Source: an uncultured Gammaproteobacteria bacterium (GTDB taxonomy: Bacteria > Patescibacteriota > Microgenomatia > Levybacterales > UBA12049). From it: a stretch of DNA of 64,000 nt. A program made the translations under genes and the position numbers. The DNA lies in contig CAZDOJ010000001.1 in NCBI GenBank assembly GCA_964507055.1, positions 401,313-465,312 of the forward strand. The letters run 5' to 3'. This document shows positions 13,867-58,133 of the stretch, piece after piece; positions within the stretch are counted from its first letter, which is position 1, and every line of letters begins with the position of its first letter. A model generated the notes under the pieces. The model worked only from the letters and a program-made list of their open reading frames with translations, searched no databases and was not told the DNA's origin.

Positions 13867-13880
13867 CTTTGATTGGTAGT

Positions 13881-13910
13881 GGTGTCTTACTGGCACTTCG
13901 GTAAGACACC
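13881..13910 (+). other. perfect 10-bp inverted repeat (GGTGTCTTAC-N10-GTAAGACACC) between the two repeat-protein genes
   Basis: Visible in the sequence; no T-tract follows, so it may be an attenuator or RNA-processing hairpin rather than a simple terminator. Confidence 0.5.
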
Positions 13911-13950
13911 CTACCACAGAGTTTATAAATAGAAATTTTAAAAACAAAAT

Positions 13951-16203: not shown

Positions 16204-16281
16204 CATTACTGCCTCTGTAAGCTTCTGCCGATTTTGTACTTACTGAAATATAATTTAATTAGTTATAAAACATATACATAC

Positions 16282-16920
16282 ATGAATAATAAAAATACTA
16301 CATTATCTATCCTTAGCTTTTCAGTTCTATCATTAATGAGTTTTCTTTTTGCTCCTTCTGCTCATGCACAAGAAAGTAAAACAACTGTTTCGATAGTTGA
16401 AAATAGTACAAACATCCAAATATCAACTGCACCCGTTATTGATAACTCGACACAGTCAATTGAAATAGCTCCAGATGAAAATAGAAATCAATTTGAAAAT
16501 ATAAATGATTCAAGCATTGTCGAAACCACTGATGCAAAGAGTGAACAGAATAATTACATGGATGAAGGTTTTACTAATAGTGCAGCCTCTCCTATTCATA
16601 ACTTAGAATTTACAAATGCTCCTGTTTATTATTCATCTGATTGTGGATGTCAGCAAGAAGATACACCAGCAAAGCCATATGACGCTGCACCCATCGCTAC
16701 CCCATCCTCACCACTACTAACTGGGGGTCCAACTTTTGCACCTGTCATTGCTGATGTTATAGCTGGGGCAATTCTTCCAACGAATGGAATAAGCTTATTA
16801 GTTTTGGCTTTATTTGGAAACATAATGATGTTATTACTTCGCTCGTACTTAAGACTGCGATCCGGACGTTCTCCGGGAATCACTTACCCCCTTGTAACAA
16901 ACCCTCACTTTTCCTATTAA
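16282..16920 (+). CDS. secreted protein with a C-terminal sorting-signal-like tail
   Basis: Signal peptide MNNKNTTLSILSFSVLSLMSFLFAPSAHA. The C-terminus is ILPTNG + hydrophobic helix + RSYLRLRSGRS, i.e. LPxTG-like tripartite architecture with N at the G-1 position. The raw ORF starts at 16234. Confidence 0.55.
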   Translation: MNNKNTTLSILSFSVLSLMSFLFAPSAHAQESKTTVSIVENSTNIQISTAPVIDNSTQSIEIAPDENRNQFENINDSSIVETTDAKSEQNNYMDEGFTNSAASPIHNLEFTNAPVYYSSDCGCQQEDTPAKPYDAAPIATPSSPLLTGGPTFAPVIADVIAGAILPTNGISLLVLALFGNIMMLLLRSYLRLRSGRSPGITYPLVTNPHFSY

Positions 16921-20474: not shown

Positions 20475-20654
20475 TTATTTATTGAACATGTAACGTGTAA
20501 TGTGTCCAACTAACATAATAAGTAAAAGAGTGTTAACAACGACAAATCCAACTGCAACGAGTGGGTGTACTTTATCCGCAAGCATAAGACCTGCAGCTGA
20601 TGTAGCTGGTAATGTTGTTGCTGCTCCTACTAATCCTTTTCCATATTCGTTCAT
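20475..20654 (-). CDS. small (59 aa) membrane protein with a conserved LPATSAAG motif; IcaD/PgaD-position small subunit candidate
   Basis: RBS GGAGGTGAT lies 7 nt upstream of the ATG at 20654. Sequence: MNEYGKGLVGAATTLPATSAAGLMLADKVHPLVAVGFVVVNTLLLIMLVGHITRYMFNK. Its paralog is at 28130-28315. This ORF is absent from the supplied ORF track because it is under 60 aa. Confidence 0.6.
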   Translation of the reverse strand: MNEYGKGLVGAATTLPATSAAGLMLADKVHPLVAVGFVVVNTLLLIMLVGHITRYMFNK

Positions 20655-20682: not shown

Positions 20683-21981
20683 TTACCTGGTTCCCCAGGC
20701 TGTTGAATAACCAACTCTACGAAACGCAGAGTGGCCAAGCGAAATAATATAAGTAAGTGTCGAAAGTAAAAATTTAGTGATGAGATTATAGGAATAGAAT
20801 AGATATGAGCCAAAGAGAACTAGGCTTAAGAAGTTACTATAAATAAGTTCAGGTAAAATTGTAAGCTTAAGCATCCAATCTTTTTTGTCTCGATCAGCAT
20901 AAACACGCATCACAATAATGTTATAGATTGTAGATATCGCAAAACTTACCCATGCTAGAGCAATAAGTACAGGAATCATGCCTTGTGTCCGTGTATATGT
21001 ATCTGCGTAAACAAATGATAAACCGATCAAGACAAATAAACTTAAAAATGAAGCATGCCCAACAAAATCTTGGAAAACAGACGGAATCTGTCTCCAATAT
21101 TGTGCCAAAACATGTAATCCTCCACTTGTCCATCGAGCACGTTGCTTCCAAAGTGCTTCAACAGTTTCAGGGACTTCAGTCCATGCAATTGCTTTCTTAG
21201 CAATTTTTACTTCCCAACCTTTAATCTTTAATCTCGCAGTAATGTCATAGTCTTCAATTAAATGGCCTCTTGTAAAGCCATCAATAGCTTCAAGAACTTC
21301 CATTCTAAATGCAGTAAGCATTCCTTGCATAACAAGCGGACCTTTAAGGAATCCATTATCTGAGATCTTGGTGATATTAAACCCATGGTATTCGAGCCCT
21401 TGCAGACGAGTTACGATGTTTTTATTCTTATTACTAATTCGAACCTGTGAGCAGACAGCTCCGATGCGATAATTAGAGAATAAAGTATTTACCATACTCG
21501 GAATTGTGTCTTTATTAATGACCACATCATCATCAAATGTGAAGACCGCATCAGGCTTAATAGCCAGGGCTTGAAGATATTCGATACCATAATTTAAAGC
21601 TCCAGCCTTTAGCGTATTGGTTGGTGTTCGGAGTGAAACGACTTGAAGATTATTCTCAGCAAGCCAGTTGATTTTACTTAAAACAGGAGCAGTATCGACG
21701 TTAATTGGCGTACAATCATCGACAACAACCACAAGAACTTTAGGATGATATTTGACTATCGATTCAACAAGCTTTGCAGTCATGTCACTTGGACCATATG
21801 TAGGTATGATCACTGCTACATGCTTCTTAGAAAATACTGAGCGTATTGAAGTAGTTTGGGGCCTTTTAGGCACAAAGAAATAGCCCATCTGTGCGGCTGT
21901 TTCAGCTACTGAGTTGACTATATTTGTTCCACGCATAATACTATAAGTCATATTATAAACTATAAGCCTATGAAATGTCAA
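20683..21981 (-). CDS. processive family-2 glycosyltransferase (PgaC/IcaA/NodC/cellulose-synthase-like)
   Basis: DDCTP (DxD region), the QRARWTSGG (QxxRW) motif and C-terminal TM helices. Alternative starts are at 21951 and 21936. Confidence 0.8.
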   Translation of the reverse strand: MTFHRLIVYNMTYSIMRGTNIVNSVAETAAQMGYFFVPKRPQTTSIRSVFSKKHVAVIIPTYGPSDMTAKLVESIVKYHPKVLVVVVDDCTPINVDTAPVLSKINWLAENNLQVVSLRTPTNTLKAGALNYGIEYLQALAIKPDAVFTFDDDVVINKDTIPSMVNTLFSNYRIGAVCSQVRISNKNKNIVTRLQGLEYHGFNITKISDNGFLKGPLVMQGMLTAFRMEVLEAIDGFTRGHLIEDYDITARLKIKGWEVKIAKKAIAWTEVPETVEALWKQRARWTSGGLHVLAQYWRQIPSVFQDFVGHASFLSLFVLIGLSFVYADTYTRTQGMIPVLIALAWVSFAISTIYNIIVMRVYADRDKKDWMLKLTILPELIYSNFLSLVLFGSYLFYSYNLITKFLLSTLTYIISLGHSAFRRVGYSTAWGTR

Positions 21982-22084: not shown

Positions 22085-24430
22085 TTAGTTACTAAGGTTT
22101 ACAGAGTCTACGTACAAGTTGAATGTACTATTAGGTGTGGTGTAGTATTGCAATCGTACTTTATTTACATTCGCACTTGTTGGCTTGTATGTAAATGATT
22201 GTACTCCAGTTACTGGTCCAGTGATCATACCTTTCCACTGTCCTGAGAGCCATGTTCCTGCTGCATCGTATTCATCGATGTAGAACCCAAATTCACCTGT
22301 TCCAGTTAATGCACTTATGTATTGTGACCATGTGTATGTTGTTGCTGGGTTAACTGTGATCATACCTGTAAATGCGTGAGCATAAGCACTATTTGCAGCA
22401 ATCTTCAAACTATTAGTTCCAGCATTACCTTTTGAGGTCGTATCAACTGTAAAGTCTTGCGTATCTCGTGTCCAATTAGCTGCGAATCCACCTGTTACTG
22501 TTTCGAATCCACCGTTTACTACCAAGTTTGTTGTTGGTGCAGTCGAAGGTGTTGGTGTTACTGTTGGTGTTGCACTTGGTGTACTTGTAGGAGTACCAGT
22601 TGGTGTAACACTAGGTGTAGCAGATGGTGTTGCTGTTACCGTTGGAGTTACAGTAGTAGCTGCTGGGTTAGAAAGTGTGTAGTTATCAACTGTAGCACTT
22701 CCTGTTGCACCAGCAGTAAGGTATGTTTGGACTCGGATTGAATTAACCAATGTTGATGTTGCTTTGTAAGCTCGAGCAAATGTAGTTGTAACACCATTTG
22801 TTACTGCTCCGATCCATTGACCAGAAATCCAAGTTCCAGCTGCATTGTATTCATCGATGTAGAATCCAAGCTCGCCTGCTGTTAAGCCACCTGTATTTGC
22901 TACTGCACTGAAGTTATATGTAGCTGCTGTGTCGATTCCTGAAACAGTCTGGAATAAGTGAGTTGCTGTTGTTGTTCCATTAAATCGGATTGCTTGTGCT
23001 TGAACTGTTACGTTTGTTGCATTGTCAGTTGTCCAAGGTGTCAAACCATTTGTGAATGATCCATTAACAATAACATTGTTTGCTGCTGGAGTCGGAGTAA
23101 CACTTGGTGTGCCTGATGGTGTCGCTGTTGGAGTCACAACACTCGGTGTAGGTGTAACACTTGGTGCTCCATCAATATTGTTCAAGTTAACACTATCCAC
23201 ATATGCTGTTCCTGTAGCTCCACCTGTAAGATATGTTTGGATTCGAACTGAGTTAACCAATGTTGATGTTGCATTGTACAATTTAGTGAAGAATCCTATT
23301 GTACCGTTAGTGACCATACCCAACCATTGACCTGAGATCCAGTTACCGTTTGTGTCATATTCGTCGACGTAGAATCCAAGTTCACCAGAAGTCAAACCTG
23401 TTGCATTGTAGAATGCATCAAGAATATAACTTGAGTTAAATGAAACATTTGTTAAACCTGAGAATAAGTGAGTTGCTGAAGCTGCACCAGCCATACTAAC
23501 TGATTGTGTCGGTGAACCATAGTTACCGTGATTTGCATTGTCAGCTTTAACTGCAGCTGCATTATCTGTATTCCAACCATTTGCAAGTCCTGCTTCAAAT
23601 CCTGAATTCTGGATAACATTTGCTCCAGGAATAGTGATAGCTTTTTCGACTGATGTAACTTGGATTTGGCCTGCATTTACCTTTGTTTGGACATAGTTTG
23701 CCATTGTAGTAAGGTTTGCTGTTGTTACAGTGTATTCATATCCAGTGTTTGCTGTTGTAGATGTGTGATGAAAAACAAGGATTAACCACTGTTTGTTTGC
23801 GATTGCTTGATCAACCCATGCTTGTACTTGTGCGGGAGTTACATTCTGATTAACATCTTGTACTACTAAGATTGCTCTATTGTATGGTGCTGTATTTGCT
23901 CCAACATCTTGGAATGCTCGGTGAGATTTGTAGTATTTAAGGATTTCAGTAATAGTAGCGTTGTCATATGCACCAAATGGTGAAGCGAAATTAGTGACGT
24001 TTAAGCCATTTGCTTTGAAAGCTGTGTTTGACTGTGTTAATTGTGCTGCATTCTGTGTAGCTGTAATTGTTGGCATTTCAGGGTGATTAACAGTATGTCC
24101 ACCAATTTCCCATCCGTAGACATTTTGTAATTCTTTTACTTGTGCCCATGTAATTCCTGGGAGGTTATTATCAAGTGTCATTGTCCCATTAGGAACTCCT
24201 GATGAAAGATAAAGGACACCATCAATACCTCGTGCTTCAAGAATTGGAGCCGCGAGGGTTCGAGTTGATGCAAATCCATCATCGAAAGTAAATGAAACTT
24301 GTGCTTTATTAAGATCTGTGAGGTTAGCAATTTTAGCTGCTGATGCAACTGGAGCTTGTGCCAATACGAGTGCCGCCATCAATCCGAAAGCGGTCAAAGA
24401 CTTTACAACTTTGTTTACGAGTTTGTTCAT
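22085..24430 (-). CDS. secreted CE4 (NodB) polysaccharide deacetylase with three CBM4/9-like modules joined by Pro/Thr linkers
   Basis: Signal peptide. NodB motifs TFDDG, GGHTVNHPEM and SPFGAYD. Three modules begin N(L/V)(V/I)xN(G/S)GFE...W and contain GELGFYVDEYD(T/A)(N/A)GNWISGQW, separated by (P/T/S/V)-rich linkers. Confidence 0.85.
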   Translation of the reverse strand: MNKLVNKVVKSLTAFGLMAALVLAQAPVASAAKIANLTDLNKAQVSFTFDDGFASTRTLAAPILEARGIDGVLYLSSGVPNGTMTLDNNLPGITWAQVKELQNVYGWEIGGHTVNHPEMPTITATQNAAQLTQSNTAFKANGLNVTNFASPFGAYDNATITEILKYYKSHRAFQDVGANTAPYNRAILVVQDVNQNVTPAQVQAWVDQAIANKQWLILVFHHTSTTANTGYEYTVTTANLTTMANYVQTKVNAGQIQVTSVEKAITIPGANVIQNSGFEAGLANGWNTDNAAAVKADNANHGNYGSPTQSVSMAGAASATHLFSGLTNVSFNSSYILDAFYNATGLTSGELGFYVDEYDTNGNWISGQWLGMVTNGTIGFFTKLYNATSTLVNSVRIQTYLTGGATGTAYVDSVNLNNIDGAPSVTPTPSVVTPTATPSGTPSVTPTPAANNVIVNGSFTNGLTPWTTDNATNVTVQAQAIRFNGTTTATHLFQTVSGIDTAATYNFSAVANTGGLTAGELGFYIDEYNAAGTWISGQWIGAVTNGVTTTFARAYKATSTLVNSIRVQTYLTAGATGSATVDNYTLSNPAATTVTPTVTATPSATPSVTPTGTPTSTPSATPTVTPTPSTAPTTNLVVNGGFETVTGGFAANWTRDTQDFTVDTTSKGNAGTNSLKIAANSAYAHAFTGMITVNPATTYTWSQYISALTGTGEFGFYIDEYDAAGTWLSGQWKGMITGPVTGVQSFTYKPTSANVNKVRLQYYTTPNSTFNLYVDSVNLSN

Positions 24431-24561: not shown

Positions 24562-27411
24562 TTAGTTACTAAGACTTACGGAGTCAACGTACAAGTTAAA
24601 TGTACTACTAGGTGTTGTGTAATATTGCAATCTAACTTGACTTACAGCTGTACTTGTTGGAACATATTGGAATGATTGGATACCAGTTGTCGGTCCAGTA
24701 ATCATACCTTTCCATTGTCCTGAAATCCAATTACCTGCTGTATCGTATTCATCGATATAGAACCCGAATTCACCTGTTCCTGTCAATGCACTTACAAATT
24801 GTGACCAAATGTATGTCGTTCCTGGAGTAACTGTGATGAAGTCACTAAATGCGTGTGAGCCAGTAGTACTTGCAAGAACTTGCAAACTGTTTGTACCTTC
24901 ATTTCCTTTTGAAGTAGTATCAATTGCAAAATCAGCTGTATCATGAGTCCAGTTGGCTGCGAAATCACCACTTACTGTTTCAAATCCACCATTTGTTACC
25001 AAGTTTGTTGCTGGTACACCTGTTGGTGTAGGAGTTACACTCGGTGTTTCAGTAGGTGTTGGTGTCACACTTGGTGTACTTGTCGGTTCAACAGTTGGAG
25101 TTACAGTTGGCACATTTGTAGGTTCTGGTGTTACACTTGGTGCATTTTCGTCAGCAATACTGATATTATCAACTGTAGCAGTACCTGTTGATCCCGCTGT
25201 AAGGAATGCATGAACTCGGATTGAGTTTACAAGGTTTGTTGACGCTGTGTATACTCTACTAATATTGTTTACAGCACCTCGCATGAAGCCCCAGAATTGA
25301 ACTGAAACCCAGTTACCGTTTGCATCATATTCATCGACATAATATCCGAGATCACCTGATGTCAAACCAGTTGTGTCAAAGTTTGCACTGACAATGTATC
25401 GAGCTGTGTTATCAAAGTTGTTAATGTGTTGATAAAGATATACTTGTCCAGCCATACCAGTCAACTTTGCTGTACCATTTTCAGCTGCAACGTGTTGTGT
25501 ATCAGTTGTACTCCATGAAGCCAAGCCACTATCAAATCCACTGTTTGCAACGATGTTACCAGCTACAGGTGTAGGTGTAACACTTGGTGTTGTTGTAGGA
25601 ACAACTGTAGGTGTTGGCGTTACATTTGCACCATTTTCATTTGCAATACTTACGTTATCAACTTTTGCTGTTCCTGTAGTTCCAGGAGTCAAGAATACGT
25701 GTACTCGGATAGATTGTACAAGATTTGTTGATGCTGTATAGACTCTATTGATACTGTTAATGCCGCCTCGCATGAAGCCCCAGAACTGTACTGAAACCCA
25801 GTTACCGTTTGCATCATATTCGTCGACGTAGTATCCAAGATCACCTGATGTCAAACCAGTTGTGTCAAAGTTTGCACTGACAATGTATCGAGCTGTGTTA
25901 TCAAAGTTAGTAATATGTTGATACAAATACATTTGTGCTGCATTACCAGTCATTGTGATTCCACCGCTTTCAGCAACGATATGTGTTGTATCAGTTGTAC
26001 TCCATGAAGCCAAACCGCTATCAAATCCACCGTTAACAACGATATTACCAGCTGCAGGTGTAGTTGTAGGAGTAACTGTTGGAGTTACACTTGGTGTACC
26101 TGTAGGCGTAACAGTTGGTGTTGTTGTAGGAGTTGGTGCAGGTGTACCATCCAAGTTATACACTTGAACACTATCAACATATGCTGTACCTGTTGCACCT
26201 GCTGTGAGGTATACTTGAACACGAATTGTGTTAACAAGTGTTGATGTTGCATTGTAAAGCTTGGTAAAGAAGCCTATTGTACCGTTAGTAGCCATACCCA
26301 TCCATTGTCCTGCGAGCCAAGTACCATTTACATCATATTCATCAACATAGAATCCAAGTTCGCCAGATGTTAAGTTTAATGAATTAACGAAAGCATCAAT
26401 AACATAACTTGAATTGTATGACACTTGTGCACCGGTATAGAAAAGATGCGCTTCAGTTGCTGTACCTGTTAAACTTACAGACTGCGTCGGTGAGCCATAA
26501 TTACCGTGATCTGCATTATCAGCTTTGATACTGTTGGCATTATCTGTTGTCCAACCATTGGCAATCCCCGCTTCGAAACCTGAATTTTGGAGAACATTTG
26601 TTCCTGGAATTGTGATTCCTTGTTCGGTTGTAACAACTTGAATTTGACCTGCTGCAACTTTGGTTTGCACATAATTTGCCATTGTAGTAAGGTTTGCTGT
26701 TGTTACTGTGTATTCATAGTTTGGATTCTTTGCTACAGCGGTATCATGGAATACGAGGATCAACCATCGCTTTTCAGTAATTGCCTGATCAACCCATGCT
26801 TGAACTTGTGCAGTTGTAGTCGCATCGTTTACATCTTGAACCATTAATATGTCTTTATGATAAGGTTGACTATTCAAAGCATCTCGATCTGCAAAACCAC
26901 GATGAGATTTGTATAATTTCAAGATTTCAGTCAAAGTCATATTGTCATATGCACCAAATGGTGAAGCGAAGTTCGTGACATTCAATCCGTTTGCTTTAAA
27001 TGCTGCATTTGAATTGGTAAGTTCGGCAACATTTTGTGCTTGTGTAATAGTAGGCATTTCAGCATGGTCTACAGTGTGTCCACCGATTTCCCATCCAAAA
27101 TCATTTTGGAGTTCTCGTACTTGATCCCATGTAATTCCTGGTTGGTTATCATCTAATGTAGCTGTACCATCTGGAACTCCTGATGTTAAATAAAGAACAC
27201 CATCGATACCTCGTGCTTCGAGAATTGGTGCGGCAAGTGTTCGGGTTGATGCAAATCCATCATCAAATGTGAATGAAACTCGTGGAGTATCAAGGTCAGA
27301 AATACTTGTTAAACGTGCAGCGTCAGCAAGAGGTGCTTGTGCCAGGAAGAAAACCGCACTCAAAAAGATTGCGGTTAAAGTTCGTACTATTTTGTTTGTT
27401 AATTTATTCAT
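24562..27411 (-). CDS. secreted CE4 (NodB) polysaccharide deacetylase with four CBM4/9-like modules (paralog of 22085-24430)
   Basis: Same architecture as its neighbour: TFDDG, GGHTVDHAEM, SPFGAYD; four modules with NGGF(D/E)SGLASW...GDLGYYVDEYDANGNWVS and PT linkers. The start is at the ATG at 27411 (MNKLTNKIVRTL signal peptide); the raw ORF runs to 27459. Confidence 0.85.
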   Translation of the reverse strand: MNKLTNKIVRTLTAIFLSAVFFLAQAPLADAARLTSISDLDTPRVSFTFDDGFASTRTLAAPILEARGIDGVLYLTSGVPDGTATLDDNQPGITWDQVRELQNDFGWEIGGHTVDHAEMPTITQAQNVAELTNSNAAFKANGLNVTNFASPFGAYDNMTLTEILKLYKSHRGFADRDALNSQPYHKDILMVQDVNDATTTAQVQAWVDQAITEKRWLILVFHDTAVAKNPNYEYTVTTANLTTMANYVQTKVAAGQIQVVTTEQGITIPGTNVLQNSGFEAGIANGWTTDNANSIKADNADHGNYGSPTQSVSLTGTATEAHLFYTGAQVSYNSSYVIDAFVNSLNLTSGELGFYVDEYDVNGTWLAGQWMGMATNGTIGFFTKLYNATSTLVNTIRVQVYLTAGATGTAYVDSVQVYNLDGTPAPTPTTTPTVTPTGTPSVTPTVTPTTTPAAGNIVVNGGFDSGLASWSTTDTTHIVAESGGITMTGNAAQMYLYQHITNFDNTARYIVSANFDTTGLTSGDLGYYVDEYDANGNWVSVQFWGFMRGGINSINRVYTASTNLVQSIRVHVFLTPGTTGTAKVDNVSIANENGANVTPTPTVVPTTTPSVTPTPVAGNIVANSGFDSGLASWSTTDTQHVAAENGTAKLTGMAGQVYLYQHINNFDNTARYIVSANFDTTGLTSGDLGYYVDEYDANGNWVSVQFWGFMRGAVNNISRVYTASTNLVNSIRVHAFLTAGSTGTATVDNISIADENAPSVTPEPTNVPTVTPTVEPTSTPSVTPTPTETPSVTPTPTGVPATNLVTNGGFETVSGDFAANWTHDTADFAIDTTSKGNEGTNSLQVLASTTGSHAFSDFITVTPGTTYIWSQFVSALTGTGEFGFYIDEYDTAGNWISGQWKGMITGPTTGIQSFQYVPTSTAVSQVRLQYYTTPSSTFNLYVDSVSLSN

Positions 27412-27459
27412 AATAAAATTTGAACAATTTATGTAATATTCAATTTTAATGAGACTCAT

Positions 27460-27528: not shown

Positions 27529-28113
27529 TTAGTTAGCTGCTTCTATCTTTACTAACTCTGCTTTTACAATATGCTGTTTGTTAGAAAAGATTTCATCTGA
27601 CGTAACGAGTGTCAAAATAGGTGTTTTTGTTGGAGCAAAAACATTTGTATCAGTTGCAAGTGCATCCCGTGAAGAAGTCACTTTATATGTTGCTTTCTGG
27701 CCATTACCATAGACGATAATTGCAGCGTCATTATCTAATTGTTGGATTCGAGTGAATCCGTCCAATCGATCATTAGCAAATAGTCCAACATTTCCTTCTT
27801 GTGCATTAACCAAACTTGTACCTTCAGCAAAGTTTGCAACATGTGGAAGAACTTCCCAAGTTCCATCTTTCAATGGAACAGAAAATATTGGGAGATCAAT
27901 CTCTACAGATGATATAACTACTCTTTCAGGAGTGAATGCCGAAAGTGTTTTTACAGGTGTAATAGTAGGAGTAACTGGTGTGACAGGAGTTGCAGTTAAT
28001 TCTTGTGAGTTTGCAACAGTAGCAGAGAGCCCATTACCTAACGAACTGAGCTGAAAGATACTAGCGAATGCCGCCAAGACAAATATAGTTGTATAAATAC
28101 TAACTTTTTTCAT
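27529..28113 (-). CDS. sortase-fold paralog with substituted catalytic His, Cys and Arg (pseudo-sortase)
   Basis: Aligned to the 19848-20468 sortase it keeps the fold (EGTSLVN, NVGLF, KATYKVT, TLVT) but has FGH->FAN, TLITC->TLVTS and RxxVRAEL->KQHIVKAEL. It retains an N-terminal TM segment and a PT-rich linker. Confidence 0.7.
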   Translation of the reverse strand: MKKVSIYTTIFVLAAFASIFQLSSLGNGLSATVANSQELTATPVTPVTPTITPVKTLSAFTPERVVISSVEIDLPIFSVPLKDGTWEVLPHVANFAEGTSLVNAQEGNVGLFANDRLDGFTRIQQLDNDAAIIVYGNGQKATYKVTSSRDALATDTNVFAPTKTPILTLVTSDEIFSNKQHIVKAELVKIEAAN

Positions 28114-28129: not shown

Positions 28130-28315
28130 TTATTTAGTACGATTTACTAAATAACGACTGATTTGACCTGCTAAGATAACAAGCCATACGACATTAAGTA
28201 CTATAAAACCTGCTAATACTATTGGGTTACTAAAGTCAGCAAAAAATGCTCCTGCTGCTGAAGTAGCCGGTAATACCGCTGCGCCTAATACTTGTCCTTT
28301 TCCGTAATCTGTCAT
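28130..28315 (-). CDS. small (61 aa) membrane protein with the LPATSAAG motif (paralog of 20475-20654)
   Basis: RBS AAAGGAGAAACT upstream of the ATG at 28315. Sequence: MTDYGKGQVLGAAVLPATSAAGAFFADFSNPIVLAGFIVLNVVWLVILAGQISRYLVNRTK. The raw ORF 28130-28471 carries an artifactual N-terminal extension that overlaps the GT2 gene. Confidence 0.6.
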   Translation of the reverse strand: MTDYGKGQVLGAAVLPATSAAGAFFADFSNPIVLAGFIVLNVVWLVILAGQISRYLVNRTK

Positions 28316-28328: not shown

Positions 28329-29591
28329 TTAGTTTTTTGTTCCCCACTTTGTTGAGAATCCTGCCTTATTAAAGGCTGCGAGTCCCCAATTATATGGAGC
28401 ATTGAATAAAGATATTTTATTTGCGATGGGTTTAAAGATTTTGTTGTATACGATGAACAAATATGAGCCAAGTAAAATAAGACTCAATAAGTTACTGTAA
28501 ATAAGTTCAGGAAGAACTGTTAATTTCATCGCCCAATCTTTCTTATCACTGTCTTCGTAAAGTGCCAATGAAACGACATTGAAAATGAACGCAACTAAGA
28601 AGTTGAATAATGAAAGTCCAAATAAGATAAGCACTGTTTCAGGTTCACTCTTTCCTGTTCGAACAAAGAAGAATGAAAGGACAATCAATCCGAAAAGACT
28701 TAAGAAAAGAATATGACCGATAAGGTCTTGGTAGACGACATCAAATTTCTTCCAGAATTCTCCCAATACATGCAATCCACCACTTACCCATCGAACACGT
28801 TGTTTCCAAAGTGCTTCGATGGTTTCAGGAACTGTTGTCCATGCGATTGCTTTTTGTGCAATCTTTACATTCCAGCCTTCACTCTTCAATCGTGCAGTAA
28901 TGTCATAATCTTCAATTAAATGACCTTTGGTAAAACCATTGATTTCTTGAATTGCATCTGTTCTAAAAGCAGTCAACATACCATGCATAACAAGTGGTCC
29001 TTTTAAGAAACCGTTATCTGCAATCTTTGTAATGTTAAAGTTGTGATACTCAAGTGCTTGCAAACGCGTAAGGAAGTTTTTGTTCTTGTTAATGACACGA
29101 ACTTCTGAACAAACTGCACCGATTGTTTCATCAGAATATAATGTTGCAATCATTTTCGTTACAGTCTTTTTAGTAATAATGACATCATCATCAAAAGTGA
29201 AAATTACATCTGGTTTGGTATTAAGACTTAATACATATTCAATACCATGGTTTAATGCACCAGCTTTTAATTCATTCTTTGGAGTTCTCAAATATGCCAT
29301 GTTGTTATGTTCATTTGCGAGATCTTTAATCTTGTTCAAAATTCTAAGATTTTTTTCTGTTTCTGGAGTACAATCATCAATAACTACAAGGATAGCTTCT
29401 GGGTGCCATTCAAGAATAGACTTTATAAGATTATGGGTCATTTCAGATGGAGTGTGAGTTGGAACAAGAATTGCTGGAAGTTTACTATGTACAATAGCCT
29501 CATTTATTTCAATTCTTTCTTTTTTTGGAGCAAAGAAATGCACGGAGTTCTCCGCAATTACTTTGAATGTATTTCTTGGTTTTCTGTTCAT
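28329..29591 (-). CDS. processive family-2 glycosyltransferase (paralog of 20683-21981)
   Basis: VVIDDCTP, QRVRWVSGG and C-terminal TM helices; the catalytic core is similar to the 20683 protein. Confidence 0.85.
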   Translation of the reverse strand: MNRKPRNTFKVIAENSVHFFAPKKERIEINEAIVHSKLPAILVPTHTPSEMTHNLIKSILEWHPEAILVVIDDCTPETEKNLRILNKIKDLANEHNNMAYLRTPKNELKAGALNHGIEYVLSLNTKPDVIFTFDDDVIITKKTVTKMIATLYSDETIGAVCSEVRVINKNKNFLTRLQALEYHNFNITKIADNGFLKGPLVMHGMLTAFRTDAIQEINGFTKGHLIEDYDITARLKSEGWNVKIAQKAIAWTTVPETIEALWKQRVRWVSGGLHVLGEFWKKFDVVYQDLIGHILFLSLFGLIVLSFFFVRTGKSEPETVLILFGLSLFNFLVAFIFNVVSLALYEDSDKKDWAMKLTVLPELIYSNLLSLILLGSYLFIVYNKIFKPIANKISLFNAPYNWGLAAFNKAGFSTKWGTKN

Positions 29592-29646
29592 GAGTTGTGA
29601 TTATATAGGACGTCTTATAATATGTCAAGAGGTAATATTATGGGCT

Positions 29647-31089
29647 TTATGATGTTCGTTGCCGTCTATGGTTTTCTTGGACCAATGTGAACTTTCCTAC
29701 ACCACTGTCATCATATGCATTCATAAGCTGAATATGTGCCTCTGGATAGAATTGAGCCAAAGTATCTAAAACTTTTCTTTGAACCAGCATATTACCTTGA
29801 ATTACTCCTCCTGCAACGGGAAATGGTAAATGACCTTTACCGTCATATCCGCCCTGATGTAATGTAGCGGCTATCATAAGTCCCATAACCTGTCCAGCCT
29901 GTTCATATGCACGGTAGGTTATACCTTCAACCAGTTCCCGCTCTTGCGGTTCAAGCTTGAAATAAAGTCTATCGTAAAAGAGTTCAGCTGATTTAGGATC
30001 ACTTGGTCTACGAGGTCCATCAAAAAAATTGAATTTTTTCGTTTGCAAATATGTATTAATATCACGAAGATTTTCTGTACGTATAAGATTTGGATCATTT
30101 TCTGTCAGAAGCGAAACTGCACCAACCATCCTTTGTCTAATTCGGTCTCCTCCAGTAAGGTATTTTAAGGCATTTCCCAAAGGCATCTTTCCATTTTTTG
30201 TCATGTATTCTTGTAAAAGATTTCCAGGTAAGATATCTGTATATGAACTAATATCCAACGTCTCTCCATGTAATTCTGCACTTGTTCCAGTCCCTCCGAT
30301 AAAGCTTACTGGCACAGGATCACCATGAGCATCCCAATCTGAAACATCATTACCAGTCGCAATCGTATCATGGAGGAAGTAAACACGCTCCACACCAAGT
30401 CCATTAGCTTGTAAATGACTAATAAGTGCAGGACCAAGAGCTGGCTGTACTTCAGCAGGAACTTCTAAATCTATATCTGTAAGGTTCCAATTAGAAGGCT
30501 TTCCATTTGGACGAGCATCGATGCCATGATCTTCAACAGTATTTAAAATAGGAAAACCTAGAGATACCCCCATTGCTTTAACATGTTGATAATCCTCTTT
30601 GCGATGGTGTACTTCATCAAACCCTCCAAGTAAGTGATCACCAATCGCTTCTGCCAAACCATGTACTGTCATTGTTCTTGATTCTGTGTCTTTTGGAATA
30701 CGGTGGTGACTAAATGTTTCTCCTAGGAATCTGCCTGATTCTTTTGTAATTATTCCTGAACGCTGATTCGTTCCTCCCCATAAAGCCACGAATGCCTGTT
30801 CATCTACAGGAACTTCTGCTAAATCTCTCCATGTAATTCTTGGAATATCAAGGGCTGGTGATTTTTCTCGCGTATCGAGAGCTGCTGTAAGTGTTGCAAA
30901 AGCACGAGATAGTTCATCGGATGTATAAGGACGCAAGCCAATTTTGTCCAAACGTGTCCCCACTTCCCTTTCAGGCAACAAAGTAGATTCATGTTTTAAA
31001 ACATGGCTCAGTTTACGCGTCAATAGCATGGGTGGAAATTCACCCAATACCGATACATTAGAAAAATTTGGTCGAACAAATTCTGCCAT
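29647..31089 (-). CDS. hexokinase-family sugar kinase (putative)
   Basis: FVALWGGTNQRSG resembles the hexokinase phosphate-1 motif (DLGGTNFR). The length (480 aa) and a second glycine-rich motif FIGGTGTSAE also fit. Local GC (~43%) is higher than the flanks. Confidence 0.45.
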   Translation of the reverse strand: MAEFVRPNFSNVSVLGEFPPMLLTRKLSHVLKHESTLLPEREVGTRLDKIGLRPYTSDELSRAFATLTAALDTREKSPALDIPRITWRDLAEVPVDEQAFVALWGGTNQRSGIITKESGRFLGETFSHHRIPKDTESRTMTVHGLAEAIGDHLLGGFDEVHHRKEDYQHVKAMGVSLGFPILNTVEDHGIDARPNGKPSNWNLTDIDLEVPAEVQPALGPALISHLQANGLGVERVYFLHDTIATGNDVSDWDAHGDPVPVSFIGGTGTSAELHGETLDISSYTDILPGNLLQEYMTKNGKMPLGNALKYLTGGDRIRQRMVGAVSLLTENDPNLIRTENLRDINTYLQTKKFNFFDGPRRPSDPKSAELFYDRLYFKLEPQERELVEGITYRAYEQAGQVMGLMIAATLHQGGYDGKGHLPFPVAGGVIQGNMLVQRKVLDTLAQFYPEAHIQLMNAYDDSGVGKFTLVQENHRRQRTS

Positions 31090-31222
31090 ATTTAAGTCTT
31101 ATAATTTTATATGATAAATGTACATATATGTTTATTTATATACATTTTCCTATCATATTTAAGACCTATAATTATACACATTTATTGAAGAAATGCAAAT
31201 TTACAGCGAGGTACAAAATAAT

Positions 31223-32002
31223 TTATTTCTCGAGCCAGCGATTGAGGTGCAATTTAAGAGAATCTAAATGACTCTGCGATGAAAAAGTATGAGGTGCATC
31301 AACAATGATATGTAATTCTTTTTTACCAGGTAATTTCGTATAAAGCATTTTTTGATGCTCGACAGGTGTAGCATCATCCTTATCGCCTACTAGCATAAAA
31401 ACGGGCATAACTAACTTATGTGCATCCTGAAGAATATTGTATTTCAGTCTATCTTCCATGTGAGACCAAGGCAGCCTTCTTATATCTTTCCCATTTGAAG
31501 AAACTCTTGTAAACCAACCTGATTTTTTCCAATCATCAAGAGAATCTCTATATTTATTCGTTTTTATACTTAATTTACCAGAGATAACGGTTGAGAGAGG
31601 AAGAAGCCCTTTAATTTTTTCTGGGTGTGCTACTGCATATAACAAGGCTGCCACTCCTCCTAAACTATGCCCAGCCAAATAAAATGGTTCTGTGTACCAA
31701 GACTGCTTTGATGACCATTGGATAAGATCTTGCAAATCTTCATGATAATTTGTAATAGTAGCTTTTTCATACATACCATCACTTTCACCAATAGTGTTGG
31801 TTGTATCGAAACGAATTACAGTAAACCCTTTTTGACGAAATGTATCTGCAACAGTAGAGATATGTGGTTGTTCTTTATTGCCACCCAAACCATGAATGAT
31901 AAAAACCAATCCTTTTGCCTTAGCTTTTTCTTCAATAAGAACCGCTAGTTTTTGTCCTTTTCTATTTTTGATGAATACCTTCTGCATGATTTTATTATGC
32001 AT
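31223..32002 (-). CDS. alpha/beta-hydrolase (esterase/lipase-type)
   Basis: GHSLGG nucleophile elbow, an upstream HGLGG oxyanion region, and a C-terminal Asp/His (DAPHTF). Confidence 0.75.
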   Translation of the reverse strand: MHNKIMQKVFIKNRKGQKLAVLIEEKAKAKGLVFIIHGLGGNKEQPHISTVADTFRQKGFTVIRFDTTNTIGESDGMYEKATITNYHEDLQDLIQWSSKQSWYTEPFYLAGHSLGGVAALLYAVAHPEKIKGLLPLSTVISGKLSIKTNKYRDSLDDWKKSGWFTRVSSNGKDIRRLPWSHMEDRLKYNILQDAHKLVMPVFMLVGDKDDATPVEHQKMLYTKLPGKKELHIIVDAPHTFSSQSHLDSLKLHLNRWLEK

Positions 32003-33060
32003 TATTTTGCAAATTTTGCTACGTGGTTTTTATATGCCGTCGGATATGGCAGATCTTGGATTCCAGCTGCAATAGTTGAACGCATTTGATCAGAAAATGC
32101 TGACACTGGTTCACGTTTTCCATTTTGTACCCCATCGACAACTTCTTCTGGTATTTTGTATGTTCCTAAATAATCAAAACTCATTTGAGGATCAAGTAAC
32201 GATACTAGTGGTGACTGTGCAACTAAATGAACATGTGGTAAGCCCGCTTTTACAGCTAATACAACTGGACCTGTATTCCATTTTTCAAGAACTCGGAATC
32301 CACCTTCTGGTGAAAGTGTCGGTATTGCTCCAGCCGAAATGACAGCTTTCATTTGTTCAGCTACTTCATCTACGCCACCTTCAGATAAGATTACATTACC
32401 TAAGTCATCCATTACTCTTTGATAAAAATCACTTGGCTGCGGTGATCTTGTAAGTCGAGCAACTGATAACCCTTCTTCCGCAAGTGCTGCATCCATAGCA
32501 ATTCGTGTAACAACTGGACCTGTATCATGAACTACTTTTCCATTTTCCCAATCCATGACATCAATTTCGGGAGTATGTGTGTTATGAGTTCCAATAACAA
32601 GACCAGGACCATATGTTTGGAGGTCTGCTAAAAAGTCTTCCTTACCGTTGAAAACAGGCTGGAATGTTTGTGTTACAAATTCTCTAAGCGGATCAAGTCC
32701 AGACTTTCCATCCATATAGTTAGCCAACCTTATATGATATTCAGCAATTCGACCACCTGTAGGCTCACCTTCTGAGCGTTTAATAATAGCGGCGACATCA
32801 TCAACCATCCTTCGATCAGCATCAACGATTCGTGCATCTGTCCGAGGGATACCTTGGGCTTTTGCTATGCCAACACCCATAAGATCGGGTAAGAGTATAT
32901 TTTGTGCAAGTTCTCGCATACCAGCACTTCGTTGCTCATGCATTTGCTCTGCAGCTCCTGAAAATCTTTTTAAAGGCATATATTGCAGCGTGGTATCAGT
33001 CGACCAAGTATGTAGCCCACCTCTGGTTAATATTTCTGTTGAAACAAGTCTTTCTGCCAT
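32002..33060 (-). CDS. conserved hypothetical protein (possibly a GalT-like/DUF4921-4922-type partner)
   Basis: 352-aa soluble protein with no clear motif, translationally coupled to its neighbours. Confidence 0.4.
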   Translation of the reverse strand: MAERLVSTEILTRGGLHTWSTDTTLQYMPLKRFSGAAEQMHEQRSAGMRELAQNILLPDLMGVGIAKAQGIPRTDARIVDADRRMVDDVAAIIKRSEGEPTGGRIAEYHIRLANYMDGKSGLDPLREFVTQTFQPVFNGKEDFLADLQTYGPGLVIGTHNTHTPEIDVMDWENGKVVHDTGPVVTRIAMDAALAEEGLSVARLTRSPQPSDFYQRVMDDLGNVILSEGGVDEVAEQMKAVISAGAIPTLSPEGGFRVLEKWNTGPVVLAVKAGLPHVHLVAQSPLVSLLDPQMSFDYLGTYKIPEEVVDGVQNGKREPVSAFSDQMRSTIAAGIQDLPYPTAYKNHVAKFAK

Positions 33061-33064
33061 AGTA

Positions 33065-34111
33065 TTATGCTGCTTCAGCTAAATGCATATTTGAAAGTTT
33101 AGCATTACCAAATACTTTTTCTACAACAGTTCTTTGAGTCTGAGCTGCTTCATCTGCTGGAATTAAATGTTTGTAGTCAGGATTTCTTTTCGATTGAATT
33201 CCTGCAGATTCAAGGACACCAATTGGCCCAGCAAACGATGGAGAGACCGATATATGGCGATCACCCTTTTCATCGAGTTCAATATATAAGTTATATGCTG
33301 GCTGTTCTAATAGTTCAGCACCTCTTCTACCATAACGCTCACCTAAACTAGAAGCCACAGTTGTATAAGCTTCATGATGATCTCTCATATTAGTTGTGAA
33401 AATATCTATATCTGCTTCAGCAGGGATTCGGAAAGAATAACCATATGGCATAGCATCTCTTTGTTGAAGAAGTAATGTTGAAGATTCGCCTTTTCCAAGA
33501 GCCCTTTGAATTCGTGGCAGTACAGATGGTAATAATCTATTTGTTATTGCTCGTTCCTCTGTAAAACCCTGAATATCTTCAACTCCATTTTCAATATACG
33601 GTTGAAAGAAGTCTTTTCTTACTGCCATGATATGATCATGATGCAATCCTATTGTTCGTGCGTTTCTTTCTTTTTCGTTAGAATAGTTCCTCATCCAATT
33701 CCCACCTGAAAAGACTCGGTACTCAGGTCCAAGTAATTCTCGATAAGCTTCGAGTCCTTCATGGAGTAATTCCCAGTAAGCACTTTGTGTTTCATGAGGA
33801 TGGTCCGTTAGTAACTCTGCTTGAATAGGTTGATCCTTAGGACGTTGTTCAAAATCAGCTCCTTTTGCTATCATCATGTAATGATATGGTGTGTATGGAC
33901 CTGTTGCTACATGAAGTCGAACTTCACTACCATCTTTTAAAGGAGCAGTTAATAGGGTTCTTGGATTATTATCACCAAGAAATCTTGATTCAAGTTCTCC
34001 AGGTAGATTAAAAATTGCGGTTGTTCTTGCTACTTCTTCTTTCGGGGTAACTCCATTAAATCCTTGTCCGGGCATTCTTAAACTGCCTTGTGGTAAACTC
34101 TCTGCTTTCAT
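33065..34111 (-). CDS. HIT-like/GalT-like nucleotidyltransferase (putative)
   Basis: The GLHHDHIMAV motif resembles the GalT/HIT HxHxQ/H motif, and it lies in an operon with a sugar-1-P nucleotidyltransferase and a kinase. Confidence 0.35.
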   Translation of the reverse strand: MKAESLPQGSLRMPGQGFNGVTPKEEVARTTAIFNLPGELESRFLGDNNPRTLLTAPLKDGSEVRLHVATGPYTPYHYMMIAKGADFEQRPKDQPIQAELLTDHPHETQSAYWELLHEGLEAYRELLGPEYRVFSGGNWMRNYSNEKERNARTIGLHHDHIMAVRKDFFQPYIENGVEDIQGFTEERAITNRLLPSVLPRIQRALGKGESSTLLLQQRDAMPYGYSFRIPAEADIDIFTTNMRDHHEAYTTVASSLGERYGRRGAELLEQPAYNLYIELDEKGDRHISVSPSFAGPIGVLESAGIQSKRNPDYKHLIPADEAAQTQRTVVEKVFGNAKLSNMHLAEAA

Positions 34112-34113
34112 AA

Positions 34114-34860
34114 TTAAATATTTTTAACATTTGAGTAGAGCTCGTTTGCCGCCTGGACGTCTTCTTGGGTTGAAATACCCATGAACTCGATACTGTTCTC
34201 AAGAAGGAAAGTACCTACCTTTTTCTCGTTTTCTAGTGCCATATTGATAAGATCTGTTAAGTAATATTCACCAGTAACTTCAGACGGGACAACTTGTCCG
34301 ATATTTTCTTCAAAGAATTTACGATCGAAGATATAAACCCCATCATTCACTTCATTCACTTTCTTTTCACGAATAGTTGCATCTTTTTCTTCAACAATTT
34401 TTTGGAAGTTCCCTGCTTTATCATAGATAACTCGTCCAAATCCTGTTGGATTCTTTTTTAACAAAGTAATGAATGTGATTGTGTTGTTATCTTTCTTGTG
34501 CTTTGCAAGAACATCTTTAAAAGTTTTTGGTTCATAAAACATACTATCATCACCATTCACGATCATAACTGTATCGATTTCTGGATTAAGAACTGGAAGA
34601 CATGCTTCAGCTGCTTTAGCTGTTCCATAGGCTTCACCTTGATATGCGATATCTGCAAATGGTTTTGCAACGGGAGCAACTAATTCTGCTTGATGTTTTA
34701 CAACTGTGATGAGTTGAGAAAGCTTAATTGAAGTAAGTGTACGCAAAGACATAACGAGAAGTGGCTCGCCATTTACCAAATGCAAAACTTTCGGTAAGTC
34801 TGATTTCATGCGGCTGCCTCGACCTGCGGCCAAAACAACTGCTGCAACTTTATTCTTCAT
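34114..34860 (-). CDS. sugar-1-phosphate nucleotidyltransferase (GlmU-N/RmlA-like)
   Basis: N-terminal AAVVLAAGRGSRMKSDLPKVL (G-x-G-T/R-R-x signature) and a ~250-aa nucleotidyltransferase fold, with no acetyltransferase hexapeptide domain. Confidence 0.8.
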   Translation of the reverse strand: MKNKVAAVVLAAGRGSRMKSDLPKVLHLVNGEPLLVMSLRTLTSIKLSQLITVVKHQAELVAPVAKPFADIAYQGEAYGTAKAAEACLPVLNPEIDTVMIVNGDDSMFYEPKTFKDVLAKHKKDNNTITFITLLKKNPTGFGRVIYDKAGNFQKIVEEKDATIREKKVNEVNDGVYIFDRKFFEENIGQVVPSEVTGEYYLTDLINMALENEKKVGTFLLENSIEFMGISTQEDVQAANELYSNVKNI

Positions 34861-35074
34861 AAGGTGAGCAGTATAACATAGGCTTATAATATATGCAAGG
34901 GGTAATATTAAAGAAGCATATCTAGCTATAAATGAGATACTCTGTTCTTAATGCAATAACTAAGCCTATAACTTATACCAGCCTCATCTTATATATATAT
35001 TGTAGAGTTAATTCTAGTATGAGGTTTGTTTCTCCAAATAGACATTGTATGTTTTTATCAACTATAATAATGCA

Positions 35075-35758
35075 ATGAATAAACGGTCCGTCCCCCAAGC
35101 AATAATTATAGATTTTGACAGAACAATGAGTGACGTCCAAAAATCCGTGGAACATCTTTATGCAGTTGTTAAAGACTTTGGTATTGATGCACTTACTATC
35201 GAGACGGCACGGACCCAACTCGAAGACGATGGAGGAACTTTCGAGCCAATTACTTATCTACAAAGCGTTCTTTCTAAAGAACAGATGCAAGAATTTTATA
35301 AAAAGTTCTTAGAGGTAAAAATGGATTCACTCTTTTCAGATACTCAACCCTTTCTTAATCTTCTTAAAGAAAACCATATACCTTTTTATGTCCTGACATA
35401 TGGCGTAAGTTATAAATGGCAAGAATTAAAAGTCGGGGGGAGTAGTTATACTGGTCCAATGAAAGTGATGGAACATAGCGATAAAGGTGCGGAGATAAAA
35501 ACCTGGAAAAATAGCGAAGGAAAGTATGTACTGCCAATCCAACAAAATGATTCGACGGAATGGATCGCTGATACAATTTGTCTCATCGATGATAAAGCAT
35601 CAGCATTTAAGAGTTTACCTGATGATTGCACAGGATTTCTTATCCAACGAAATGAAACACTTCTTCCAAGCCAACAAGGTGAAATCCCCAATCACGTCCA
35701 ACTTATAAAATCATTCAATGAACTAACAATCAGAAATCAACTCCTCAAGTTACAATAG
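35075..35758 (+). CDS. HAD-superfamily hydrolase-like protein
   Basis: IIIDFDRTMSD (DxD motif I) and a later LIDDK (motif IV-like). The start is at the ATG at 35075; the raw ORF starts at 35045. Confidence 0.5.
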   Translation: MNKRSVPQAIIIDFDRTMSDVQKSVEHLYAVVKDFGIDALTIETARTQLEDDGGTFEPITYLQSVLSKEQMQEFYKKFLEVKMDSLFSDTQPFLNLLKENHIPFYVLTYGVSYKWQELKVGGSSYTGPMKVMEHSDKGAEIKTWKNSEGKYVLPIQQNDSTEWIADTICLIDDKASAFKSLPDDCTGFLIQRNETLLPSQQGEIPNHVQLIKSFNELTIRNQLLKLQ

Positions 35759-35836
35759 TTTAAGTAACATTTCGACAATTTGAGCACAACCTTGCCGAGA
35801 GCTTGTGTTACTTGGCGGCCCGAGTAGCAATAAAAT

Positions 35837-38476: not shown

Positions 38477-38479
38477 AGT

Positions 38480-40705: not shown

Positions 40706-41055
40706 CGTACATTACGGGCAGTAAATGTGTGGGCAGCATTGATGAGCTTAATCGTATAGTTATATACTATAAGTCAACAAAAGCTGAGTATATTATAGTT
40801 GGAGGCATATGTCAAGCTACGCTATACTACTATATAGAGGGTTTTTCTGAAGAAATGTAATTTATCCAATTGACAGAAAAGAAAATAATATGGTATACAT
40901 GAAGTCTGCCAAGGTATTTAATACGATTAATAAAAAAGATTATCTACCTCTCATACTATAAGTTTTAATTAGGGATTGGAGACCCTGTACTTATTCATCA
41001 ACTATTTCGCTACGATTGCGTCTGTCTACTCATTGAAGCGAGCTTAGTATGGTAC

Positions 41056-41084
41056 TTGACAATTACATAAATATCCTATAATAT
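41056..41084 (+). promoter_or_regulatory. candidate sigma70-like promoter (TTGACA-17-TAATAT) for the 41140 gene, in a 434-nt divergent intergenic region
   Basis: TTGACA at 41056-41061 and TAATAT at 41079-41084; an overlapping TATAAT at 41077-41082 would imply a 15-nt spacer. Confidence 0.35.
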
Positions 41085-41139
41085 ACACATTAATTCGATA
41101 TTATGGGATATAAAAACGAGTATCGAAGACGTAACGAAT

Positions 41140-52589: not shown

Positions 52590-52636
52590 CCTATAACATT
52601 TAATATAGGCTTATTTAAATGCCTAGAAATAAATAT

Positions 52637-53251: not shown

Positions 53252-53263
53252 GGAGGTACTTCA

Positions 53264-56082: not shown

Positions 56083-56088
56083 GAAGCT

Positions 56089-58066: not shown

Positions 58067-58133
58067 ATTTAGATTTTACAATCTTCCTAAATTCTTATTA
58101 AGCTGTTATTATATCTATTCTCAAACTGAACCT

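Follow-up and report, generated by a model that had tools for sequence, protein, structure and literature searches.

Sortases (Pfam family PF04203, MEROPS family C60) have to our knowledge been treated as obligate cysteine transpeptidases. Some are organized in dedicated cassettes with a single substrate, such as SrtB with IsdC or the class GN 'marine' sortase with its one target. Pseudoenzymes occur in most enzyme families, and a dead sortase per se would not be shocking. Here we describe a sortase-fold protein that has lost the catalytic residues, hereafter the pseudo-sortase, encoded on the minus strand at positions 27529-28113 of a 64,000-nucleotide stretch of contig CAZDOJ010000001.1 (the window), from an uncultured bacterium of the Patescibacteria or Candidate Phyla Radiation (CPR). 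Its gene is preceded by those of a processive family 2 glycosyltransferase (GT2_A) and of a micro-protein carrying the motif LPATS (pepA), and is followed by the genes of two CE4 polysaccharide deacetylases (PD1 and PD2). A paralogous cassette farther downstream encodes a glycosyltransferase (GT2_B), a micro-protein (pepB) and a sortase with intact catalytic residues, here called the paralog SrtB.

Comparison with described systems

The pseudo-sortase resembles the class A and E sortases in its N-terminal membrane anchor and eight-stranded barrel, in the scaffolds that it keeps of the ...GN.G..(G/A)H and (L)TL.TC motifs, and in that its gene adjoins that of a protein with an LPXTG-type tripartite sorting signal. 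However, it has neither the triad nor a cysteine, it falls under all NCBIfam class thresholds, and its neighbouring substrate is a 61-aa micro-protein without signal peptide or passenger domain. As in the dedicated cassettes, the sortase gene lies beside one cognate LPXTG-like target with a nearly invariant motif. Yet the target consists here of a sorting signal plus 14 residues and is set between a GT2 synthase and a CE4 deacetylase, and the sortase is dead in several lineages. The order processive GT2, small membrane protein and CE4 de-N-acetylase is also that of ica and pga (IcaA-IcaD-IcaB; PgaC-PgaD-PgaB), whereas the small protein of the window has one helix instead of two and no NCBIfam match, and a sortase-fold gene is inserted. 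Concerning membership in this group, the CE4 de-N-acetylase domain PF01522 was found in PD1 and PD2, but the GT2 score against the PgaC/IcaA equivalog model TIGR03937 (125.6 bits) did not reach its cut-off of 422.3; the two GT2s also showed weak NCBIfam matches to XrtG- and XrtP-associated glycosyltransferases. Exosortase (PEP-CTERM) systems, in which a sorting enzyme for C-terminal signals is likewise coupled genetically to GT2-type polysaccharide genes, provide an analogy only, because the exosortase is a polytopic membrane protein and not a sortase barrel.

Pseudo-peptidases kept for non-catalytic roles include the iRhoms. Others have been described among the bacterial pseudo-orthocaspases (PMC6426788) and the pseudo-metallopeptidases (PMC11266112), and SERA5 of Plasmodium, a Cys to Ser pseudo-peptidase, has been reported to be non-enzymatic (PMC4671257). 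The pseudo-sortase is comparable to them in that a protease fold stays under selection after catalytic loss, that Cys to Ser is a typical replacement and that scaffolding or client binding has been proposed. It differs in fold and family, and in that the dead copy of the window keeps its operon partners beside an intact paralog. The interest of the present case lies in the combination of recurrence, conserved operon context, a co-varying micro-protein and a CPR envelope cassette, which is apparently undescribed. A full-text search of the literature, which for pseudo-sortases covered 8 million texts, found neither a paper on natural pseudo-sortases nor a description of a GT2/micro-protein/sortase/CE4 cassette, in line with the preliminary description of this DNA, which had taken pseudo-sortases that keep their operon context to be undescribed.

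A sortase fold without the catalytic residues

The uninterrupted open reading frame (ORF) codes for 194 aa, and its product aligned end to end with the paralog SrtB in a BLASTP comparison (40% identity, E 5e-45). The Pfam Sortase model PF04203 scored 48.4 bits (cut-off 26.6) over positions 2-125 of its 125. The score with NCBIfam TIGR01076 was 21.4 bits, under the cut-off of 39.35, and the NCBIfam models of classes A-F gave 18-21 bits against cut-offs of 160-166. Since SrtB also stayed under the class A-F cut-off (39.6 against 160 bits), the whole CPR sortase clade is unclassed by these models. An AlphaFold2 model built from an alignment of 16 homologs (mean predicted local distance difference test, pLDDT, of 79.7) consists of an N-terminal helix at residues 6-36, a low-confidence Thr/Pro-rich linker at 34-55 and a sortase barrel with pLDDT of about 90 or above. 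A hydrophobic helix followed by such a linker is the arrangement of a membrane anchor, and the barrel would be extracytoplasmic. When the model was compared with the PDB by Foldseek, all of the 50 matches listed were sortases, the best ones of classes A, E and C. The top match was Listeria SrtA (5hu4, E 5.9e-10, target TM-score 0.77), and the best ones comprised SrtA of Listeria, Lactobacillus, Bacillus and Streptococcus and SrtE of Streptomyces and Thermobifida. Matches in a PDB search with the sequence were weak (best E 0.0015). The gene had previously been read as an intact, full-length sortase paralog with transmembrane anchor and linker, as these data confirm.

The triad columns were read from an alignment with 15 homologs and then from one with 164 family sequences. 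The His column (IFGH) is occupied by Asn114 (nt 27774-27772), FGH being changed to FAN, and the Cys column (TLITC) by Ser172 (nt 27600-27598), TLITC being changed to TLVTS. The Arg column corresponds to the first Arg of 'YRHMVRAEL', eight residues after the Cys, and presumably to R197 of Staphylococcus aureus SrtA, whose 'RKIFVA' would follow the same pattern R-x-hydrophobic-hydrophobic-x-A. In the pseudo-sortase it holds Gln180 (nt 27576-27574). These three columns were conserved at 100/100/100% (H/C/R) in 77 non-redundant intact relatives and at 0/10/30% in 10 non-redundant dead ones. The triple substitution proposed earlier is thus right for His to Asn and Cys to Ser and wrong for the third residue, given as Arg to Lys: the Lys then named is Lys184, which aligns with a variable column where active enzymes have R, K, Q or T, and the change at the Arg column is Arg to Gln.

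An alignment artefact, with the true catalytic residues of an ordinary sortase lying elsewhere in the protein, is next to impossible. In one HMMER pairwise alignment, with a class C sortase, the Arg register does move by one residue, because the loop of that enzyme is longer, but the shifted register puts His181, and not an Arg, at the Arg column. The ungapped alignments with the paralog and the ortholog, which are unambiguous around all three motifs, are the reliable ones. Moreover, the pseudo-sortase contains no cysteine at all, so that the alternative Cys/His pair envisaged in the preliminary description as a refutation is excluded. Judged from these alignments, the protein is without the catalytic triad of the sortase family and is predicted to have no transpeptidase activity towards LPXTG-type signals. 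Because it matches sortases by fold and sequence and fails in their catalytic hallmark, it is to be filed as a pseudo-sortase.

Selection on the dead copy

A related complete chromosome (OZ246394.1; loci L001, L004 and L005) encodes, in the same gene order, an ortholog 84% identical to the pseudo-sortase and with the same N/S/Q residues. The Nei-Gojobori ratio of nonsynonymous to synonymous substitution (dN/dS) between the two was 0.109 (bootstrap 0.063-0.181), with a dN of 0.106 and a dS of 0.97. In the same genome comparison the active paralog and its counterpart gave 0.156 (0.083-0.242), and the two GT2 genes gave about 0.07. The identical pseudo-sortase protein is present on 9 contigs and the substitutions are therefore not sequencing errors. 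By these comparisons the pseudo-sortase is under purifying selection and it fits the general definition of a pseudoenzyme.

It is highly improbable that the gene is a neutral relic, that is, a freshly inactivated duplicate en route to a pseudogene and with no function of its own. An intact paralog 7 kb away would make its catalysis redundant, but the ratio of 0.11 extends across a dS of about 1, since a common ancestor that was already N/S/Q. In addition, the genes of about 12 dead sortase lineages showed neither frameshifts nor stop codons, the position, length and membrane anchor of the dead sortases are conserved, and dead copies persist even at loci with no second sortase close by. This low ratio and the kept operon context, together with the ortholog that carries the same three replacements, bear out the earlier proposal of a maintained non-catalytic protein instead of a decaying pseudogene.

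Recurrence of dead sortases

The triad H/C/R was present in 150 of the 164 family sequences and about 12 were dead. Replaced triads (residues at the His, Cys and Arg columns) were NSQ in the window copy and P0002, NVL in P0006, DAQ in P0009, EVT in P0037, LVT in P0038, DYR in P0075, DAK in P0077, AST in P0079, KCR in P0083, ITR in P0089, TTG in P0126 and YNK in P0154, to which two fragments are added. The fold and loop residues P62, T99, G107, N108, Y143, F159, P165, L167 and T168 were kept at 80-100% in the dead set, whereas H114, T171, C172, R180 and W86, at or next to the active site, decay. The window copy is the mildest of the dead cases, with near-isosteric replacements and every other family motif intact.

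In a bootstrapped neighbour-joining tree of the adjacent GT2 genes, the cassette L017 (AST) groups at 98% with the intact L008, far from the 'A-type' clade that holds the window copy, and at least two independent losses of the triad are therefore robust. An intact sortase (P0003, locus L011) is nested among dead A-type members in both the sortase and the GT2 neighbour-joining trees, which suggests further independent losses inside this clade.

The variety of residues at the Cys column bears on the question of an altered chemistry, in which Ser172 would act as the nucleophile of a serine transpeptidase or hydrolase with some other residue as base. A serine is a possible nucleophile, it is kept in the 84%-identical ortholog, and Cys to Ser homologs of cysteine peptidases exist, for instance SERA5 (PMC4671257); this last protein, however, is itself reported as non-enzymatic. 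Asn and Gln have taken the places of the general acid/base His and of the Arg. The Cys column of other dead members holds V, A, Y, T or N, and with the S of the window copy this makes a conserved alternative nucleophile unlikely. His181, in the 'RH' of the pseudo-sortase, is not a new residue either, as it is shared with the active paralog, and it would lie on a beta-strand facing away from position 180. Altogether we regard an altered chemistry as very improbable.

The LPATS micro-proteins and their cassette

Both pepA and pepB are built of a short tail M-T/N-D/E-Y-G-K-G ... LPATS, a 12-residue spacer, one hydrophobic helix (about 21 residues in pepA) and a basic tail. They are bare cell-wall sorting signals, carry a 'cargo' of 14 residues and lack a signal peptide. 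In pepA the LPXTG-like motif, the helix and the basic C-terminus of a cell-wall sorting signal are all present, and NCBIfam models gave no match to it at E<=0.1. A profile search with the peptide retrieved 84 clusters, all of 57-90 aa and all annotated as 'hypothetical', with LPATS in 79 of them. The sources named were Candidatus Dojkabacteria, Candidatus Microgenomates and Patescibacteria, and WWE3 was also named for the gene family. The title 'uncultured Gammaproteobacteria bacterium' borne by the records of L001/L004/L005, L006 and L007 is therefore probably a mislabelling. Sortases have been found to be near-ubiquitous in Microgenomates (PMC6744442).

The order GT2, peptide of about 60 aa, sortase and CE4 was found wherever the context of the family sortases could be read (L001, L006, L007, L008, L009, L010, L011, L013, L017, L020/21 and L022), with a CE4 deacetylase in the position equivalent to PD1 in L001, L010, L011, L017, L020 and L022. 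Sampling of cassettes by means of the peptide gave one 1.2-kb locus in Joint Genome Institute (JGI) metagenome contigs, and a scan of GTDB genomes gave 5 loci.

Two further observations were made on the micro-proteins. The motif YGKG resembles the YPKN of pilins, and a pilin-like Lys nucleophile leading to head-to-tail polymerisation or a lariat was considered; it was rejected as a general mechanism because the Lys is replaced by Arg in 14 of the 84 clusters and a further 10 have no such motif. Compared with L001 9802-9987, pepA (28130-28315) gave a dS of 0.20 where its neighbours gave about 1.0, a noisy estimate on 61 codons that hints at nucleotide-level constraint or recent homogenisation.

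Fate of the motif in cassettes with live and dead sortases

All cassettes whose cognate sortase is live (7/7) had an intact LPxT[S/T] motif (cassette B of the window, L005, L006, L007, L008 with LPATT, L011 and L012). LPATS was intact in 5/10 cassettes with a dead cognate sortase (window, L001, L010, L009 and L013), a difference for which Fisher's exact test gave p=0.044, the kinship of the cassettes being ignored. Among these five, an intact sortase lies 2.5-11 kb away in the window, L001 and L010, and the contigs of L009 and L013 are too short to tell whether there is one nearby. In the remaining dead cassettes the motif was altered or lost: the L015 peptide has 39 aa and begins after the motif, in L017 the motif is replaced, the L022 peptide is truncated to 50 aa, L020/21 has LPAAS and no N-terminal motif, and L018 has LPASG in a peptide fused to the sortase. 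A hidden Markov model scan found no second sortase within the 12-21 kb contigs of L017, L020 and L022. Loss of LPATS thus goes together with the lack of a neighbouring intact sortase. In every case of motif loss the sortase-fold gene was kept, as were the helix and the S-R-Y/F-x-x-N-R/K tail, and since dead sortases persist without LPATS in L015, L017, L020/21 and L022, their conserved role cannot depend on it.

Locus L010 (8103-11846) is informative concerning the processing of the tail. A dead sortase (P0009, D/A/Q) and an intact one (P0014) lie there 2.5 kb apart with the CE4 gene between them. The sole LPATS peptide adjoins the dead sortase. Neither a GT2 nor a peptide gene accompanies the sole intact sortase, downstream, which has only a promoter-like intergenic region in place of the latter; some genomes therefore carry a reduced B cassette. 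The first 19 residues of pepA were identical (19/19) between the window and both L010 and L013. Over the same distance, the dead sortases of L010 and L013 show 47% and 42% identity with that of the window, the L010 GT2 69%, and the remaining part of the peptide 29-30 identities in 42 positions. An invariant tail beside a diverging dead sortase points to a slower-evolving reader, most simply the intact paralog. The paralog SrtB of the window would then cleave the LPATS tail at Thr-Ser, and GAAVLPATSAAGA is a candidate peptide substrate.

These data also bear on the possibility that the pseudo-sortase is a non-cleaving receptor or regulator, whose dead site binds the pepA tail and either presents it to the intact sortase or shields it, tuning pepA processing in the manner of a substrate trap. 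The near-isosteric changes (His to Asn, Cys to Ser, Arg to Gln) speak for it, as do the retention of W86, T171 and the F159/P165/L167/T168 loop-strand motif in the window copy, the perfect LPATS of pepA and the natural occurrence of one in-frame peptide/dead-sortase fusion. However, dead sortases persist with micro-proteins that have no LPATS (L015, L017 and L022), so that binding cannot be the general retained function, the dead sortase diverges fast beside an unchanging tail, AlphaFold2 gave no confident docking and the fusion is a singleton. The proposal, advanced in the preliminary description, that the pseudo-sortase binds LPATS therefore keeps the near-isosteric triad and the groove motifs in its favour, and has against it the loss of LPATS in four dead lineages, an invariant tail that points to another reader and the missing AlphaFold2 docking. 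As an account of the pseudo-sortase, a receptor or regulator of this kind seems to us unlikely.

The fusion protein itself (P0077, L018 379-1260) joins in frame the micro-protein, with LPASG, and a dead sortase (D/A/K); its predicted topology places the motif and the sortase domain both outside the membrane. As it occurs on one 2.3-kb contig only, it could be an assembly error.

A probable non-catalytic subunit of an exopolysaccharide module

We consider it fairly probable that the pseudo-sortase is a membrane-anchored, folded protein without Cys transpeptidation, which selection keeps in a synthase-dependent exopolysaccharide module as a subunit with no catalytic role. Such a module would be composed of a processive GT2 synthase, a single-helix micro-protein of about 60 aa, a sortase-fold protein and a CE4 deacetylase. 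The helix and basic tail of the micro-protein would form a synthase-associated subunit, positionally like IcaD or PgaD, and the sortase-fold ectodomain would be a structural partner of the synthase complex that needs neither catalysis nor LPATS. The extracellular MTDYGKG...LPATS tail would be an add-on, cut at Thr-Ser by an active sortase. After duplication of the cassette, cleavage of pepA may have been delegated in trans to SrtB, 7 kb downstream, which would have freed the A copy to lose its chemistry and keep the scaffold role. The window copy may still hold the LPATS tail uncut, because its replacements are near-isosteric (N/S/Q) and its groove-lining motifs are kept. The pseudo-sortase is probably a non-enzymatic part of the cassette machine, the chemistry being done by its intact sister.

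Several points weigh against this reading. The GT2 scores far under the PgaC/IcaA cut-off (125 against 422 bits), and no homology between the micro-protein and IcaD or PgaD was detected. The co-loss of motif and catalysis rests on about 17 related cassettes, several of them on short contigs, and those genomes could encode an intact sortase at some other site. The internal bootstraps of the A-type clade are 27-60%, and the extra losses within it are not counted here. Finally, in the AlphaFold2 model of the P0077 fusion, made from a mixed alignment, the LPASG segment has a pLDDT below 50 and is not confidently docked.

A wider reading, tentative and on balance doubtful, would join these elements in an undescribed CPR envelope machine. 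The sortase fold would be primarily a subunit of the synthase complex, and the cleavable tail of the micro-protein would couple the polymer, or its de-N-acetylated amines, covalently to peptide or wall. The pseudo-sortase would then be the non-cleaving form, evolved repeatedly where catalysis is redundant or dispensable.

Gene order, promoters and neighbouring regions

On the minus strand the order is promoter, GT2_A, pepA, pseudo-sortase, PD1, PD2, promoter, GT2_B, pepB, SrtB and a GH10 glycoside hydrolase (Table 1). The two perfect promoters of the window have the spacing TTGACA-N17/18-TATAAT and both abut GT2 start codons, which suggests leaderless or near-leaderless transcripts for GT2_A and GT2_B. 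Translation of GT2_B probably begins at the ATG at 21936, because its listed TTG (21981) falls within the promoter. No match came from scans of the window for Rfam families and tRNAs.

Table 1. Features of the two cassettes and their coordinates in the window
Feature	Position	Strand	Remarks
Sigma-70-like promoter A, TTGACA-17-TATAAT, 12/12	29600..29628	-	Ends 8 nt before the GT2_A ATG (29591); heads the GT2_A-pepA-pseudo-sortase unit
GT2_A, processive family 2 glycosyltransferase	28329..29591	-	Q-R-x-R-W motif; best NCBIfam match PgaC/IcaA, under the equivalog cut-off
pepA, 61-aa micro-protein	28130..28315	-	MTDYGKG...LPATS tail, single membrane helix, basic SRYLVNRTK tail; strong AAGGAG ribosome-binding site
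Pseudo-sortase, 194 aa	27529..28113	-	N-terminal membrane helix, Thr/Pro-rich linker and sortase barrel; Asn114/Ser172/Gln180; no Cys
PD1, secreted CE4 polysaccharide deacetylase	24562..27459	-	PF01522; repeated carbohydrate-binding-like modules; fourth gene of the canonical cassette
PD2, second CE4 deacetylase paralog	22085..24430	-	PF01522; between the two cassettes
Sigma-70-like promoter B, 12/12	21952..21981	-	Heads cassette B
GT2_B, paralogous synthase of cassette B	20683..21981	-	Listed TTG start overlaps the promoter; Q-R-x-R-W motif and best NCBIfam match PgaC/IcaA as in GT2_A
pepB, 59-aa LPATS micro-protein, pepA paralog	20475..20654	-	Built like pepA
SrtB, intact sortase paralog, 206 aa	19848..20468	-	His/Cys/Arg present; candidate enzyme for both LPATS tails

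Upstream of cassette A there is a large envelope-glycan region (29647-45270). It holds three ORFs of 480, 352 and 348 aa without family match, an alpha/beta hydrolase, an NTP-transferase, a PMT-GH8 fusion (879 aa), a double GT2 (741 aa) and a GT2-GT2-GT4 fusion (1376 aa). Two of these genes, those of the PMT-GH8 fusion and of the NTP-transferase, are in synteny with L010, L020 and L022.

Other sorting systems were identified in the window. A third sortase of 177 aa (53264-53797, plus strand), with intact His/Cys/Arg and 48 bits with the NCBIfam sortase_fam model, lies directly 3' of a 210-aa secreted protein (52619-53251, plus strand) that ends in ...GGLAPTGNALAMYLAILAGVGSLITGFVLRKSK, a LAPTG-type sorting signal. 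By its sequence the region 52619-53797 is a conventional sortase/substrate pair, separate from the LPATS cassettes. A polytopic protein of the exosortase/archaeosortase family (56089-57027, plus strand; TIGR04178, 61 bits, cut-off 23) is preceded by a 152-aa protein (region 55624-57027, plus strand) that ends in VPEFGLLPGAIAALGSAGAFLAIRRRKI, a PEF/PEP-CTERM-like tail. With sortases and an exosortase in one 64-kb stretch, both kinds of sorting system are therefore encoded.

Three successive secreted proteins are encoded at 12562-16920 (plus strand), two of which (434 and 750 aa) are very rich in Asn, Gly and Ser and contain internal repeats. The third, of 228 aa, ends in ...GAILPTNGISLLVLALFGNIMMLLLRSYLRLRSGRS, a possible degenerate C-terminal anchor of LPxNG type. 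At 56000-64000 the G+C content falls from about 0.37 to 0.28-0.30 over the last 8 kb, where polytopic membrane and acyltransferase-like ORFs are found; the region may form a separate surface-polysaccharide block, by horizontal acquisition or otherwise.

Significance

A recurrent, selected dead sortase would add the sortases to the families with working pseudoenzymes, and the sortase fold would have a second, non-catalytic use. The cassette is a testable handle on surface building in uncultured, host-dependent bacteria, and the invariant 18-residue LPATS tail together with the intact sortase could yield a new, compact ligation pair of use in protein engineering.

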